From IMG/VR virus record IMGVR_UViG_2675903253_000005: DNA of 6,346 nucleotides; one strand, written 5' to 3'. Shown piece after piece: positions 1 through 6,346 of this stretch. The stretch comes from a virus (taxonomy: Duplodnaviria; Heunggongvirae; Uroviricota; Caudoviricetes). Made by a program: the position numbers and the translations under genes. Numbering within the stretch: the stretch's first letter is position 1; each line of letters starts with the position of its first letter. A model generated the notes under the pieces. That model was not told the origin of the DNA, searched no databases, and was given only the letters and a program-made list of their open reading frames with translations.

Positions 1-1
1 C

Positions 2-409
2 GCTGCAGAGTCCTCAAAAAGCGCGGCGGCTACCAGTGCCGGTGCGGCGAAAACGTTAGAAACGAATGCGGCAGCGTCACAACAATCAGCAGCCACTTCT
101 GCATCCACCGCGACCACGAAAGCGTCAGAAGCTGCCACCTCAGCCCGGGATGCGTCGGCTTCAAAAGAGGCGGCAAAATCATCAGAAACGAACGCATCAT
201 CAAGCGCCAGTAGCGCAGCTTCCTCGGCGACGGCGGCTGCAAATTCTGCGAAGGCGGCCAAAACGTCCGAGACGAACGCCAGGTCTTCTGAAACGGCAGC
301 GGGACAGAGTGCCTCAGCTGCGGCAGGCTCAAAAACAGCGGCTGCGTCGTCTGCCAGCGCCGCGTCAACAAGTGCCGGGCAGGCCTCAGCCAGTGCCACC
401 GCCGCCGGN
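2..409 (+). CDS. stf: Side tail fibre (Stf-like) internal fragment from the Ala/Ser/Thr-rich shaft; no start codon in window, 3' end broken at the ambiguous base 409
   Basis: Frame-2 translation [68 protein letters not shown]... is near-identical to 1028..1436 of copy B and 2101..2512 of copy C. The apparent stop at 428-430 lies beyond the junction and belongs to the upstream flank, not to this gene. Confidence 0.8.
409..409. other. Single ambiguous base (N) at the breakpoint between shaft sequence and the stf upstream flank
   Basis: Sequence ...gccgccgg-n-ccaggtaacacag: shaft homology ends at 408 and the upstream-flank sequence (also seen at 1484) begins at 410. Confidence 0.9.
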
Positions 410-431
410 CCAGGTAACACAGTGTTATGAC

Positions 432-458
432 AGCCCGCCGGTTCAGGCGGGCTTTTTT
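432..458 (+). terminator. Rho-independent terminator directly upstream of stf
   Basis: 8-bp perfect GC-rich stem agcccgcc (432-439) / ggcgggct (446-453), 6-nt loop ggttca, then a T6 tract (453-458). Confidence 0.75.
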
Positions 459-460
459 GT

Positions 461-466
461 GGGGTG
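461..466 (+). promoter_or_regulatory. Putative Shine-Dalgarno element for stf copy B
   Basis: ggggtga immediately upstream of ATG 470. Partial match to the extended SD (GGAGGTGA); spacing is short. Confidence 0.4.
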
Positions 467-469
467 AAT

Positions 470-1461
470 ATGGCAGTAAAGATTTCAGGTGTACTGAAAG
501 ACGGCACAGGAAAACCGGTACAGAACTGCACAATCCAGCTGAAAGCAAAACGTAACAGCACCACGGTGGTGGTGAACACGCTGGCCTCAGAAAATCCGGA
601 TGAAGCCGGGCGTTACAGCATGGACGTTGAGTACGGTCAGTACAGCGTTATTCTGTTGGTGGAAGGATTCCCGCCGTCACATGCCGGGACCATCACCGTG
701 TATGAAGATTCCCGACCCGGTACGCTGAATGATTTTCTCGGTGCCATGACGGAGGATGATGCCCGTCCGGAGGCACTGCGCCGTTTTGAGCTGATGGTGG
801 AAGAGGTGGCGCGTAACGCGTCCGCGGTGGCACAGAACACGGCAGCCGCGAAGAAATCAGCCAGCGATGCCAGCACATCAGCCCGTGAGGCGGCAACCCA
901 TGCGACTGATGCTGCAGATTCAGCACGTGCAGCCAGCACGTCAGCCGGACAGGCCGCTTCGTCGGCTCAGTCAGCGTCTTCCAGCGCAGGAACGGCATCA
1001 ACAAAGGCCACTGAAGCATCAAAAAGTGCTGCCGCTGCAGAGTCCTCAAAAAGCGCGGCGGCCACCAGTGCCGGTGCGGCGAAAACGTCAGAAACGAATG
1101 CTGCAGCGTCACAAAAATCAGCAGCCACTTCTGCATCCACTGCGACAACGAAAGCGTCAGAAGCCGCCACTTCAGCCAGAGATGCGGCGGCCTCCAAAGA
1201 GGCGGCAAAATCATCAGAAACGAACGCATCATCAAGCGCCAGTAGCGCAGCTTCCTCGGCGACGGCGGCTGCAAATTCTGCGAAGGCGGCCAAAACGTCC
1301 GAGACGAACGCCAGGTCTTCTGAAACGGCAGCGGGACAGAGTGCCTCAGCTGCGGCAGGCTCAAAAACAGCGGCTGCGTCGTCTGCCAGCGCCGCGTCAA
1401 CAAGTGCCGGGCAGGCCTCAGCCAGTGCCACCGCCGCCGGAAAATCGGCAGAAAGCGCCGC
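470..1461 (+). CDS. stf: Side tail fibre protein Stf, 5' portion (copy B); truncated by the N-run at 1462
   Basis: ATG 470 gives [36 protein letters not shown]..., which matches my recollection of the lambda Stf N-terminus. The ORF track starts at the in-frame GTG 464; ATG 470 is preferred. About 95% identical to the same region of copy C by eye. Confidence 0.85.
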
Positions 1462-1483
1462 NNNNNNNNNNNNNNNNNNNNNC
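1462..1483. other. 22-nt run of N (scaffold gap or masked junction)
   Basis: Literal n characters. Flanked on the left by shaft sequence (equivalent to copy C position 2541) and on the right by the stf upstream flank. Confidence 0.95.
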
Positions 1484-1504
1484 CAGGTAACACAGTGTTA
1501 TGAC

Positions 1505-1531
1505 AGCCCGCCGGTTCAGGCGGGCTTTTTT
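1505..1531 (+). terminator. Rho-independent terminator directly upstream of stf (second copy of 432..458)
   Basis: Identical hairpin agcccgcc/ggcgggct with loop ggttca and T6 tract, ending 12 nt before ATG 1543. Confidence 0.75.
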
Positions 1532-1533
1532 GT

Positions 1534-1539
1534 GGGGTG
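1534..1539 (+). promoter_or_regulatory. Putative Shine-Dalgarno element for stf copy C
   Basis: ggggtga upstream of ATG 1543; same sequence as 461..466. Confidence 0.4.
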
Positions 1540-1542
1540 AAT

Positions 1543-4500
1543 ATGGCAGTAAAGATTTCAGGTGTACTGAAAGACGGCACAGGAAAACCGGTACAGAACT
1601 GCACAATCCAGCTGAAAGCAAAACGTAACAGCACCACGGTGGTGGTGAACACGCTGGCCTCAGAAAATCCGGATGAAGCCGGGCGTTACAGCATGGACGT
1701 TGAGTACGGTCAGTACAGCGTTATTCTGTTGGTGGAAGGATTCCCGCCGTCACATGCCGGGACCATCACTGTGTATGAAGATTCCCGACCCGGTACGCTG
1801 AATGATTTTCTCGGTGCCATGACGGAGGATGATGCCCGTCCGGAGGCTCTGCGCCGTTTTGAACTGATGGTGGAAGAGGTGGCGCGTAACGCGTCCGCGG
1901 TGGCACAGAACACGGCAGCCGCGAAGAAGTCAGCCAGTGATGCCGGCACATCTGCCCGTGAGGCGGCAACCCATGCGACTGATGCTGCAGGCTCAGCGCG
2001 TGCAGCCAGCACGTCAGCCGGACAGGCCGCGACTTCGGCTCAGGAGGCGTCTTCCAGCGCAGGAACGGCATCAACAAAGGCCACTGAAGCATCAAAAAGT
2101 GCTGCCGCTGCAGAGTCCTCAAAAAGCGCGGCGGCCACCAGTGCCGGTGCGGCGAAAACGTCAGAAACGAATGCTGCAGCGTCACAAAAATCAGCAGCCA
2201 CTTCTGCATCCACTGCGACAACGAAAGCGTCAGAAGCCGCCACTTCAGCCAGAGATGCGGCGGCCTCCAAAGAGGCGGCAAAATCATCAGAAACGAACGC
2301 CTCCACAAGCGCCAGCAGTGCAGCCTCCTCGGCAACGGCGGCAGGAAATTCCGTGAAGGCGGCAAAAACGTCCGAGACGAATGCTAAGTCTTCTGAAACG
2401 GCAGCGGAACAGAGCGCCTCAGCTGCGGCAGACTCTGAGACAGCAGCTGCATCATCGGCCCGTGAGGCGTCCATTAAGGCAGAGGAGGCAGCAGTCAGTG
2501 CCACCGCCGCCGGAAAATCGGCAGAAAGCGCCGCATCATCCGCTTCAACAGCCACAACGAAGGCTGGCGAAGCCACTGAGCAGGCCACGGCAGCAGCGAG
2601 GTCAGCTTCCGCAGCGAAGACATCCGAAACGAACGCGAAAGCGTCGGAAACCCGTGCAGAATCCTCAAAAACGGCTGGCGCATCGTCCGCCAGTTCGGCG
2701 GCGTCATCGGCATCATCGGCGTCTGCTTCAAAAGATGAGGCGACCAGACAGGCGTCAGCAGCGAAGGGCAGCGCCACGACGGCATCCACGAAGGCGACAG
2801 AGGCTGCTGGTAGTGCGACGGCAGCAGCTCAGAGCAAAAGTACGGCGGAATCTGCAGCAACGCGCGCTGAGACAGCGGCAAAACGGGCAGAGGATATTGC
2901 ATCCGCCGTGGCGCTTGAGGATGCGAGCACGACGAAAAAGGGGATAGTACAGCTCAGTAGTGCGACTAACAGCACTTCCGAGTCACTGGCGGCAACGCCA
3001 AAAGCCGTTAAGGCCGCGTATGACCTGGCTAACGGGAAATACACCGCACAGGATGCAACGACAGCACAGAAAGGGATAATCCAGCTAAGCAGCGCGACCA
3101 ACAGCACGTCTGAAACGCTGGCGGCAACGCCAAAGGCAGTAAAAGCAGCCAATGACAATGCTGAGAAACGTCTGCAGAAAGATCAGAACGGTGCGGATAT
3201 CCCTGGCAAAGACACCTTTACGAAAAATATTGGTGCCTGCCGTGCCTTCGGTGGGTCAGTAAGCACAACAACAGGAAACTGGACGACTGCACAGTTTATC
3301 GAGTGGCTGGATTCTCAGGGAGCATTTAACCATCCATACTGGATGTGCAAGGGTTCCTGGTCTTATGGCAATAATAAAATCATTACTGATACTGGCTGCG
3401 GTAATATTCATCTCGCCGGAGCTGTCATTGAAGTAATGGGGATAAAGTCAGCGATGACGATCCGCATTACCACTCCGACCACATCCAGCGGTGGCGGAAC
3501 AACCAACGCCCAGTTTACCTATATTAATCACGGAACAGATTATTCACCTGGCTGGCGAAGGGACTATAACTCCAGAAATAAGCCAACGGCATCAGAGATC
3601 GGGGCGCTACCGTCAGGTGGAACAGCAGTATCATCAGTTAATCTGGCTTCAAAAGGTCGGGTAGCCGCGCTGACAGACAATACGCAGGGGGCAGCAGGTC
3701 TTGAGTTATACGAGGTGTATAACAACGGATATCCAACAGCGTATGGAAATATCATTCACCTGAAAGGGATGACAGCCGTTGGCGAAGGTGAGTTACTCAT
3801 CGGCTGGAGTGGTACAAGCGGTGCTCATGCTCCGGCATTTATTCGTTCACGACGGGATACGACCGACGCAAACTGGTCGCCGTGGGCGCAGCTTTACACC
3901 TCGGCTCATCCTCCTGCAGAGTTTTATCCAGTCGGTGCACCAATCCCGTGGCCATCAGATACCGTTCCGTCTGGTTATGCCCTGATGCAGGGGCAGACTT
4001 TTGACAAATCTGCTTACCCGAAACTTGCAGCCGCTTATCCGTCAGGCGTGATCCCTGATATGCGTGGCTGGACGATTAAGGGCAAGCCCGCCAGTGGTCG
4101 TGCCGTATTGTCTCAGGAACAGGATGGCATTAAATCGCACACCCACAGCGCCAGCGCATCCAGTACGGATTTGGGGACGAAAACCACATCGTCGTTTGAT
4201 TACGGCACTAAATCCACGAATAACACCGGGGCGCATACGCACAGTCTGAGCGGCTCTACAAGTTCAGCTGGGGCCCACCAACATAGTCAGACTGGGCCCA
4301 GAACGAATAGCGGGAGTCAACCTACTGGAATGTTTCCGGCAGGGAGTACTCAAGTTAGCGGGACTAATCAGGTTGGTATCAGTGGCTCATTAACCAGTGG
4401 CACCTCCCAATGGGTAGGTAAATCATCTTCAGAAGGAAACCATACACACTCACTGTCCGGCACAGCAGCATCTGCGGGTGCACACGCGCATACTGTCGGT

Positions 4501-4626
4501 ATTGGTGCTCATACGCACTCTGTTGCGATTGGTTCACATGGACACACCATCACCGTTAACGCTGCTGGTAACGCGGAAAACACCGTCAAAAACATCGCAT
4601 TTAACTATATTGTGAGGCTCGCATAA
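1543..4626 (+). CDS. stf: Side tail fibre protein Stf, full length (1027 codons): N-terminal tail-attachment region, Ala/Ser/Thr-rich shaft, two phage fibre repeats, receptor-binding domain, His-box (HxH) tip
   Basis: Uninterrupted ORF from ATG 1543 to TAA 4624-4626. N-terminus [20 protein letters not shown]... and C-terminus ...[29 protein letters not shown] match my recollection of lambda Stf. [23 protein letters not shown] fibre repeats are present. Seven HxH motifs lie in the C-terminal 140 residues. Confidence 0.9.
1900..2930 (+). repeat. Low-complexity Ala/Ser/Thr-rich shaft region with degenerate repeats (recurrent K(T/S)SETNA and SAAA/TSA motifs)
   Basis: The protein is dominated by A/S/T/K/E here. 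SETNA recurs at about 2161, 2287, 2371 and 2626. The GCN-rich codons create long spurious antisense ORFs. Confidence 0.7.
2938..3150 (+). repeat. Two tandem phage tail-fibre repeats within stf copy C (one 44-aa unit plus one core unit)
   Basis: [44 protein letters not shown] (2938..3069) followed by [29 protein letters not shown] (3070..3150). This is the conserved fibre-repeat motif shared by lambda Stf, P2 H and Mu S-type fibres. Confidence 0.8.
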
Positions 4627-4649
4627 TGGCATTCAGAATGAGTGAACAA
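4626..4649 (+). CDS. tfa: Tail fibre assembly protein Tfa, first 8 codons only (MAFRMSEQ), then broken at the ambiguous base 4650
   Basis: ATG 4626-4628 overlaps the stf stop (TAATG). MAFRMSEQ matches my recollection of the lambda Tfa N-terminus. After n4650 the sequence is mid-stf shaft, not tfa. Confidence 0.6.
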
Positions 4650-4650: not shown

Positions 4651-4651
4651 G

Positions 4652-6346
4652 GGCAGCGCCACGACGGCATCCACGAAGGCGACAGAGGCTGCTGGCAGTG
4701 CGGCAGCGGCAGCACAGAGCAAAAGTACGGCGGAATCCGCGGCAACGCGCGCCGAGACAGCAGCAAAACGGGCAGAGGATATTGCATCCGCCGTGGCGCT
4801 TGAGGATGCGAGCACGACGAAAAAGGGGATAGTACAGCTCAGTAGTGCGACTAACAGCACTTCCGAGTCACTGGCGGCAACGCCAAAAGCCGTTAAGGCC
4901 GCGTATGACCTGGCTAACGGGAAATACACCGCACAGGATGCAACGACAGCACAGAAAGGGATAGTTCAGCTCAGCAGTGCGACTAACAGCACTTCCGAGT
5001 CACAGGCGGCAACGCCAAAAGCCGTTAAGGCCGCGTATGACCTGGCTAACGGGAAATACACCGCACAGGACGCTACGACAGCACAAAAAGGAATTGTCCA
5101 GCTCAGTAGTGCAACCAACAGCACATCTGAAACGCTTGCTGCGACACCGAAAGCAGTGAAAGCAGCTAATGACAATGCGAATGGTCGGGTACCTTCTGCC
5201 CGTAAGGTGAATGGTAAGGCGCTTTCAGCGGATATAACACTGACGCCGAAAGATATTGGTACGCTTAACTCAACAACAATGTCATTCAGCGGTGGTGCTG
5301 GTTGGTTCAAATTAGCAACGGTAACCATGCCACAGGCGAGTTCTGTTGTTTCAATTACGTTGATTGGTGGCGCTGGATTTAACGTGGGGTCACCTCAACA
5401 GGCAGGTATATCTGAACTTGTTTTACGTGCAGGTAATGGTAATCCGAAGGGGATTACTGGTGCTTTATGGCAGCGCACATTGACAGGGTTTACAAATTTT
5501 GCCTGGGTTAATACATCTGGTGATACTTACGATATTTACGTTGCAATCGGAAATTATGCGACTGGTGTAAATATTCAATGGGATTATACCAGTAATGCCA
5601 GCGTGACGATTCATACGTCACCAGCATATTCTGCTAATAAGCCGGAAGGGTTAACGGACGGTACAGTTTATTCACTCTATACGCCATCAGAGCAGTTTTA
5701 TCCGCCTGGCGCACCAATCCCGTGGCCATCAGATACCGTTCCGTCTGGCTATGCCCTGATGCAGGGGCAGGCTTTTGACAAATCTGCATACCCGAAACTT
5801 GCAGCGGCTTATCCGTCAGGCGTGATCCCTGATATGCGTGGCTGGACGATTAAGGGCAAGCCCGCCAGTGGTCGTGCCGTATTGTCTCAGGAACAGGATG
5901 GCATTAAATCGCACACCCACAGCGCCAGCGCATCCAGTACGGATTTGGGGACGAAAACCACATCGTCGTTTGATTACGGCACTAAATCCACGAATAACAC
6001 TGGTGCGCATACCCATAGTTTAAGTGGCAGCACGAATGCAGCTGGTAATCACAGCCATAGAGATGGCCGTCGATTTAACCCCAGTGTTTTTAAAGATACT
6101 TATCAATATGGTTATACAAGCTCAGGTCAAAATACCTGGGGTGTACAAGGCTCAGTAGGTATGTCTACGGGGTGGTTAGCGAATACCAGTATAGATGGTA
6201 ATCATAGCCATTCACTGTCCGGCACAGCAGCATCTGCAGGTGCACACGCGCATACTGTCGGTATTGGTGCTCATACGCACTCCGTTGCGATTGGTTCACA
6301 TGGACACACCATCACCGTTAACGCTGCTGGTAACGCGGAAAACACC
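4652..6346 (+). CDS. Stf-like side tail fibre, 3' portion of a distinct allele (copy D): shaft end, three fibre repeats, alternative receptor-binding domain, His-box tip with alternative insert; partial at both ends
   Basis: Frame-2 open reading from 4652 to the window end with no stop. The first ~170 nt parallel copy C 2767..2937. Repeats [15 protein letters not shown]... occur three times. Region 5708..6031 is near-identical to copy C 3934..4257, and 6212..6346 to 4450..4584. Confidence 0.85.
4823..5167 (+). repeat. Three tandem phage tail-fibre repeats in copy D (two 44-aa units plus one core unit)
   Basis: Units begin at K codons 4823, 4955 and 5087. Sequences are [88 protein letters not shown] and [29 protein letters not shown]. 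Confidence 0.8.

Follow-up and report, generated by a model that had tools for sequence, protein, structure and literature searches.

Two natural alleles of a lambda-type side tail fibre gene, and a patchwork copy most likely made by the assembler, in an N-joined viral scaffold

The window analysed here, the whole 6,346-nt stretch of IMG/VR virus record IMGVR_UViG_2675903253_000005, consists of four overlapping contigs (A to D) that Ns join into one scaffold, and every one of them comes from a gene for a lambda-type side tail fibre (stf). Its three apparent stf alleles are two natural alleles, here called G1 and G2, plus contig B, a patchwork most likely made by the assembler. The scaffold probably consists of overlapping contigs of two co-sampled prophage or phage stf genes, with the allele switches in contigs B and C having arisen in silico. 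The pieces of the window are as follows.

1-408, plus strand: contig A, internal stf fragment from the Ala/Ser-rich shaft, frame open from position 2; G1 allele
409, no strand: A-B scaffold join, one N
410-1461, plus strand: contig B, lom-stf spacer, stf start (ATG 470) and first 992 nt of stf
432-453, plus strand: terminator-like hairpin of contig B, in the lom-stf intergenic spacer
1018-1195, plus strand: minimal G2-type tract in contig B (maximal 974-1227), flanked by 44 nt and 32 nt of shared sequence
1462-1482, no strand: B-C scaffold gap, 21 N
1483-4649, plus strand: contig C, lom-stf spacer as in contig B, complete stf ORF and tfa start
1505-1526, plus strand: terminator of contig C, in the lom-stf intergenic spacer
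1543 (ATG) to 4624-4626 (stop), plus strand: stf ORF of contig C, 1027 aa
4626 (ATG), plus strand: tfa start of contig C, overlapping the stf stop; first 24 nt of tfa only
4650, no strand: C-D scaffold join, one N
4651-6346, plus strand: contig D, 1.7-kb 3' portion of another stf allele, both ends open

The true stf 5' end is present in contigs B and C only, contig A being internal. Read from left to right, the window runs from a mid-gene fragment to a spacer and 5' part, then to a spacer with a whole gene and tfa start, and finally to a 3' fragment, an order that is biologically senseless. The ORF of contig B reads into Ns, beyond which lies intergenic spacer, and the A-B junction sequence, with any base allowed at the N, has no match in IMG/VR. 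N-free sequenced junctions between copies, the mark of a genuine tandem duplication, number zero of three, all three being Ns. The window contains no ORF of at least 40 aa outside the shadow of the stf frame.

Pfam searches place residues 1-134 of the contig C protein in the prophage tail fibre N-terminal domain (PF08400, E=1.4e-71), and the same domain is found in the contig B protein (E=4.5e-71). The distal half of contig C encodes two PF03406 repeats and a PF07484 collar domain; contig D encodes three PF03406 repeats and a PF07484 collar, with a central domain unlike that of contig C. This architecture (PF08400, Ala/Ser-rich shaft, PF03406, PF07484, His-rich C-terminus) is the same as in the lambda Stf, StfR (Rac), StfQ (Qin) and Tfa chaperone system, and the stf stop codon of contig C overlaps the tfa start as in lambda-type stf. 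NCBI lists prophage Stf homologues as "prophage tail fiber N-terminal domain-containing protein". In natural homologues the gene order is J-lom-stf-tfa, and this full context surrounds the near-identical genes of ECC-1470 and PCP06022; of it, the window retains 24 nt of tfa and the terminator-bearing spacer that follows lom, and nothing more. Sequenced lambdoid phages reach up to 96.7% identity to the window stf (PhiR68_2, mEp460). There is no functional difference from the lambda Stf family; what differs is that the gene is present here as four overlapping assembly fragments, and that contigs B and C hold parental combinations unseen in nature. Multiple stf copies per genome are ordinary in E. 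coli, with a median of 2-3 places per genome and a maximum of 17; the initial annotation had suggested multiple co-resident lambdoid prophages.

Two known sources of tail fibre variation were considered and rejected. A segment switched by an invertase of the Mu Gin, P1 Cin or e14 Pin type does not fit, as the window has no invertase gene, its inverted repeats are merely 20-23 nt with 75-80% complementarity, and contigs C and D part gradually, each collinear with single natural genes. The target of a diversity-generating retroelement does not fit either, since the differences between contigs A and B (7 transitions, 6 transversions) include T/C, G/T, C/A, C/T, G/A, T/G and A/C and are not restricted to template adenines. 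In the natural locus L089, pinR is found downstream of stf.

The copies were compared ungapped and pairwise, counting substitutions, with zero indels. Contig A (1-408) differs from contig B (1033-1440) at 13 positions, all within A 31-163, and A 164-408 is free of mismatches. Contigs B (410-1461) and C (1483-2534) differ at 56 positions, 16 at B 697-973 and 40 at B 1228-1422, leaving B 410-696, 974-1227 and 1423-1461 mismatch-free, and contigs A and C differ at 53 (13+40). The copies are therefore distinct, as the initial annotation had claimed, and all of the peptides that it quoted were found. It had described the differences as scattered, whereas alignment places them in blocks: the chance of 13 mismatches in 408 nt being confined to a span of at most 133 nt is 5e-6, and none of 200,000 permutations gave two B/C mismatch-free stretches of at least 254 nt. 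The exact A/B match that it reported exists, but as A 164-408 against B 1196-1440, not at B 1198-1425, which is ~15 nt off; likewise the alignments that it proposed start at 1033/1034 and 2106/2107 and not at 1028 and 2101. Codon differences comprise 9 synonymous and 3 non-synonymous between contigs A and B, and 28 synonymous and 19 non-synonymous between contigs B and C. Written as segment II followed by segment III, the 408-nt overlap occurs in three versions, a-y (contig A), x-y (contig B) and x-c (contig C), while the 5' end and the 3' end each have two versions and no third.

A recombinant patchwork, suspected earlier from the A/B pattern, is borne out, with contig B and not contig A as the mosaic. 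Under a copying model, contig B is parsed with 0 mismatches as G1 at offsets 0-563, G2 at 564-785 and G1 at 786-1051, the G2-type tract measuring 178-254 nt. All 13 of its segment II sites are those of contig C; at site 1018, contigs B and C have the base A and all 11 natural alleles of type "a" throughout have the base C. The junctions between segments II and III correspond to 47-mers of the A type (GCGTCGGCTTCAAAAGAGGCGGCAAAATCATCAGAAACGAACGCATCATC), the B type (GCGGCCTCCAAAGAGGCGGCAAAATCATCAGAAACGAACGCATCATC) and the C type (GCGGCCTCCAAAGAGGCGGCAAAATCATCAGAAACGAACGCCTCCAC). The a-to-y junction was found in 58 IMG/VR contigs and the x-to-c junction in 31. A search for the right-hand, x-to-y junction 47-mer of contig B gave no match among 2.9 M IMG/VR contigs, 241 M metagenome records and the GTDB species genomes. 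Across complete E. coli genomes (5,426 genomes, 4,091 places), the best match to the 101-mer at 1160-1260 was 94.1% identical and of pure C type. A search fragment by fragment, which had been proposed as a check, returned exact natural alleles for contig A and the contig C 5' part, and none for the contig B junction.

Neither parental allele is unusual, and both occur naturally. Contig A is 100% identical over 408 nt to at least six independent IMG/VR contigs (L005, L013, L020, L035, L038 and L047), and a 44-mer diagnostic for it is present in 58. The first 1052 nt of contig C (1483-2534) show 0 mismatches to L065. G1 is represented in the window by B 410-973, A 1-408 and C 2580-4649, and G2 by C 1483-2495 and contig D. 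The natural stf alleles collected are themselves mosaics of shared blocks of tens to hundreds of bases. Among complete E. coli genomes, the best matches to full-length G1 were 97.0-98.2% identical.

Contig C also changes type, being G2 to 2495 and G1 from 2580 on. The 104-mer spanning this switch (2488-2591) does not occur in IMG/VR, and a search with 2395-2880 in complete E. coli genomes gave no match of at least 99%; the natural combinations at this point are found in 6 and 27 fetched loci. Contig C from 2514 to 4649 fits with the contig B 5' part and contig A, and over 3167 nt the gene re-phased in this way differs from L020 and L048 by 3 mismatches, compared with 71 for contig C as assembled. 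Re-phasing the contig C 5' part with contig D gives 99.43% identity to L065 and a sequence collinear with many complete E. coli genomes (99.1%, 100% coverage; 149 records at 99% or more). The opposite reconstruction, joining the B/A 5' part to the contig D 3' end, is wrong: natural G1 alleles run into the 3' end of contig C, and natural C-type 5' ends run into contig D instead. Contig D differs from L065 at 8 positions only, all with the contig C/G1 state. One of its two "foreign" patches, the first G1-like one, occurs as a natural combination in 8 IMG/VR contigs and was ruled out as an artefact, indicating that not all of the oddities in the window are artefacts.

We propose that four overlapping stf contigs from two lambdoid prophages, or two phage genomes, in one sample were linked up by a short-read assembler or scaffolder. 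G1 and G2 share identical runs of tens of bases between their blocks of difference, and contigs B and C, and possibly contig D, cross between the parents at such runs; parent switching at shared stretches yields the three versions of the overlap region. N-joined stf pieces are also present in six fetched IMG/VR loci from independent draft assemblies. In IMGVR_UViG_2671180490_000011, two G1-like pieces depart from pure G1, and all 5 of the 5 comparable deviations have the state of the co-scaffolded allele; two further deviations lie past the end of that allele. The features resemble the repeat-induced fragmentation and the chimeric or duplicated contigs of short-read bacterial assemblies (general background, Kingsford et al. 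2010; PMC2821320): here too contigs break at the boundaries of shared sequence, shared segments are duplicated across contigs, and allelic pieces are linked by Ns, as in the six other draft contigs. A difference is that the contig ends here suit no single k-mer size.

Several observations are counterpoints to an assembler origin. In segment I, contigs B and C are phased correctly over shared stretches of 77, 65, 37 and 32 nt, so an assembler that managed these would be expected to phase the 44-nt and 32-nt bounds of the contig B tract as well; a simple model in which the assembler is unable to phase 32 nt or more is contradicted. The shared lead-ins at contig ends are 30, 18, 39 and 45 nt. Contig A starts exactly 30 nt ahead of the first allele-specific base, which would suit unitigs of a k=31 de Bruijn graph, but at the other ends the shared bases number 18, 39 and 45; as no single k suits the contig ends, we dropped a k-mer-size signature as evidence. 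Full-length G1 has been found in three IMG/VR contigs only.

The foremost alternative, possible though in our judgement doubtful, is that contig B is a real third haplotype, from a third stf copy or a subpopulation, produced by very recent short-patch gene conversion over the same 178-254 nt. A G1-type stf would have received segment II from a co-resident G2-type stf, and the same process would have homogenised patches in contigs C and D, so that the contigs would be faithful and the scaffold order still an artefact. The sample contains both parents, and contig B has no private mutation, as expected of a very recent event; natural stf alleles are finely mosaic, three or more stf copies are common in E. 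coli genomes, and the segment I phasing suggests that the assembler could phase such distances. Experiments have also documented that lambda recombines at stf-tfa with the prophages Rac and Qin: De Paepe et al. (2014; PMC3945230) described homologous recombination of lambdoid tail fibre genes between phages and resident prophages, with real recombinants recovered genetically. In form, contig B is what short-tract gene conversion between two co-resident alleles should produce; unlike those recombinants, it exists only as one contig of an N-joined scaffold, and no other sequence searched has its junction, which occurs at 0 of ~4,000 natural places in complete genomes and is absent from IMG/VR, GTDB and metagenome contigs. 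Gene conversion would moreover need several independent private events in one strain (the contig B tract, the contig C switch and the second contig D patch, at 5786-5916), the scaffold around contig B is demonstrably mis-built, and similar two-parent patching occurs in another N-joined scaffold. For these reasons we favour in silico switching.

Other sources are very unlikely even when taken jointly. A strain or phage mixture, from a metagenome or lysate, with more than two parental alleles would accord with a window that lacks host sequence. A genuine tandem stf array is made unlikely by the Ns at each junction, by the ORF of contig B reading through them into spacer and by the absence of the A-B junction from IMG/VR. 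As for consensus or polishing errors, which the initial annotation had named as grounds for refuting a multi-allele interpretation, almost all of the variant states are seen again in independent public contigs; the differences are blockwise, mostly synonymous and identical to alleles in dozens of such contigs, which excludes errors and shows that the copies are genuine variants. Least credible of all is the proposal of at least three source templates, that is, three prophage alleles with separate histories: the 408-nt overlap does hold three distinct sequences and several lambdoid prophages per genome are common, but every base of contig B has the G1 or G2 state in three contiguous blocks, no private site underivable from the other copies was found in it, two templates cover all four contigs, the true 5' and 3' ends have two versions only, and an independent natural allele should recur in databases, where the contig B junction never does.

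The finding is ordinary biology, and the main value of the case is one of caution. Multi-copy prophage tail fibre genes cause short-read assemblies to fall into overlapping allelic pieces, which scaffolders then join; single contigs in such scaffolds can be chimeras of co-resident alleles, and allele counts or recombination inferred from them can be too high. If contig B were real, it would be a snapshot of tail fibre mosaic formation inside a lysogen, caught with both unconverted parents: a neat, unsurprising instance of gene conversion between prophages that affects a receptor-binding gene, by a process already documented.

The window holds, in pieces, a gene with the lambda Stf architecture by Pfam (N-terminal PF08400, PF03406 repeats and a PF07484 collar). 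Ns at 409, 1462-1482 and 4650 divide the 6346 bases into four contigs, referred to as A to D:

1-408: contig A, an internal stf fragment, the counterpart of B 1033-1440 and C 2106-2513
410-1461: contig B, with a terminator hairpin at 432-453 and the stf ATG at 470
1483-4649: contig C, with a terminator hairpin at 1505-1526, the stf ATG at 1543 and a complete 1027-aa ORF ending at 4626
4651-6346: contig D, an alternative 3' part that begins at the equivalent of C 2766

Contigs B and C begin at the identical base, 4 nt past the stop codon that lom has in natural loci, and have the same terminator hairpin and stf start; the stf stop of C overlaps the tfa ATG. The pieces run in the order mid-gene fragment, spacer with 5' part, spacer with whole gene and 3' fragment, which is biologically senseless, and the A|B junction sequence has no match in IMG/VR. 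It follows that the window is a scaffold made up of repeat fragments. DNA searches demonstrated that the gene is present in thousands of E. coli prophages, with matches annotated as "prophage tail fiber N-terminal domain-containing protein" or stfR, and at a median of 2-3 places per genome (maximum 17). Homologues in complete genomes lie in the order J-lom-stf-tfa, and sequenced lambdoid phages also carry the gene, at 96.7% identity or less. The top complete-genome match to fragment A (NZ_CP159644.1 1947571-1947978, 99.3%) coincides with a feature labelled "phage terminase large subunit family protein"; the record probably has either a wrong annotation or a fused ORF at this place.

Pairwise alignment of the copies gave 13 (A/B), 56 (B/C) and 53 (A/C) mismatches and no indels, bearing out the initial annotation's claim that they are distinct; the peptides it quoted are all found in the window. 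The differences, which it called scattered, lie strictly in blocks, with clustering far beyond chance in permutation tests. In segment I (B 697-973), 16 sites separate B from C. In segment II (B 1063-1195) A stands apart from an identical B and C at 13 sites, and in segment III (B 1228-1422) C stands apart from an identical A and B at 40. The reported stretch of exact A/B identity exists, at A 164-408 and B 1196-1440, about 15 nt from the B coordinates first assigned to it. These are real alleles: the A-type segment II/III junction has exact matches in 58 IMG/VR contigs and the C-type junction in 31, at least six contigs match contig A at 100%, and locus L065 matches C over its first 1052 nt without a single difference. 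Nearly every state at 69 diagnostic sites, scored over the stf loci fetched for comparison, was seen again in independent contigs, and the codon changes among copies are synonymous in the majority. Consensus or polishing errors, a source that the initial annotation had itself raised, are thereby ruled out.

Six fetched loci (L005, L013, L020, L035, L048 and L056) combine segment I of B, segment II of A and the segment III common to A and B, and this combination was named allele G1; the second parental allele, G2, corresponds to the 5' part of C followed by D. The segment combination of B itself was found in none of the fetched loci. Its junction from x-type segment II to y-type segment III, queried as a 78-mer and a 47-mer, had no match in IMG/VR, in GTDB species genomes or in 241 million metagenome records, and across 5,426 complete E. 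coli genomes (4,091 places) the 101-mer 1160-1260 reached a top identity of 94.1%, exactly pure C type. Parsed with a copying model against 44 distinct natural alleles, B came out with zero mismatches as G1 type at offsets 0-563, G2 type at 564-785 and G1 type at 786-1051. The G2 tract is 178-254 nt long, lies between stretches of 44 nt and 32 nt that the alleles share, and includes site 1018, at which contigs B and C carry A and 11/11 natural all-"a" alleles carry C. B thus has no history of its own and is exactly a mosaic of the sample's two other sequences; the "recombinant patchwork" proposed at the outset describes this one piece.

Joined in order, B 410-1032, A and C 2514-4649 show 3 mismatches in 3167 nt with L020 and L048. 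In its assembled form, contig C shows 71 mismatches with its closest full-length relative and reaches 96-98% at most in complete E. coli genomes, split in two pieces. C 1483-2765 followed by D is collinear with many complete genomes (100% coverage, 99.1% identity; 149 records at 99% or better) and 99.43% identical to L065. The change from G2 to G1 state in C falls between 2496 and 2579. A 104-mer across it has no match in IMG/VR, C 2395-2880 has no match in complete genomes at 99% or better, and, of the two natural combinations at this region, one was seen in 6 fetched loci and the other in 27. D has only eight differences from L065, common to the natural D-type alleles L089 and L090; 8/8 have the G1/contig C state, grouped in two patches, of which one combination is natural (8 contigs) and the other was searched for and not found. 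After two-parent assignment, only bases 2678 and 2997 of C (positions 1196 and 1515 of the G1 reconstruction) match neither L020 nor L065, and these are private SNPs or residual errors. We conclude that two templates suffice for all four contigs.

The chimeric contigs probably arose by assembly phase-switching between two co-sampled stf alleles. The scaffold is plainly mis-built, its several unique junctions each join the same pair of co-sampled parents, and N-joined stf pieces occur in six fetched IMG/VR loci. In IMGVR_UViG_2671180490_000011, two G1-like pieces depart from pure G1, with 5/5 comparable sites carrying the state of the co-scaffolded allele and two more deviations beyond that allele's end. 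Evidence against an assembly origin comes from the correct phasing of B and C over shared stretches of 32-77 nt in segment I, from contig ends that agree with no single k-mer size, and from the documented recombination of lambda with resident prophages at stf-tfa (PMC3945230). The correct phasing would fit real recent gene conversion, as a third copy or in a subpopulation, an origin that is rather unlikely. Mixtures or other causes take up the small remainder. The three or more independent source templates initially proposed are not required and are highly improbable, as two suffice and B parses as a mosaic of the other two.

The public draft contigs with N-joined tandem stf fragments of this kind are L038 and L050 (IMGVR_UViG_2671180490_000011), L035, L039, L045 and L047. 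One piece of L050 stops within 6 nt of the end point of contig B and the next begins at the lom stop; the G1-like pieces of these drafts contain small patches of the co-scaffolded allele. In the natural locus L089 (E. coli ECC-1470, 12694-13284), whose gene is of the C5'+D type, pinR, a DNA invertase gene, and a second tfa that is truncated lie downstream of stf-tfa. They are what is left of an invertible tail-fibre segment, of which the window shows nothing.

C (2766-4649) and D (4651-6346) are alternative distal halves of Stf, with near-identical flanks:

2766-3078 in C and 4651-4963 in D
3920-4226 in C and 5694-6000 in D
4431-4584 in C and 6193-6346 in D (95%)

Between these flanks lie unrelated central or receptor-binding stretches, and D has one additional 132-nt PF03406 repeat (three copies by Pfam versus two in C). 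This is module shuffling typical of tail-fibre tips. His-rich repeated motifs at the C-terminus, at 4140-4570 (C) and 5915-6330 (D), are conserved in both and may be akin to the metal-binding HxH repeats found at the tips of other phage fibres. The Ala/Ser-rich shaft (840-1460 and 1910-2900) has internal direct repeats spaced 63, 84, 126 and 252 nt, all multiples of 21 nt (7 aa), a periodicity that suggests a heptad-based coiled coil. These repeats also offer recombination or mis-assembly many short runs of identical sequence. Overall, what is viewed here through a fragmented assembly is an ordinary lambda-type side tail fibre gene.
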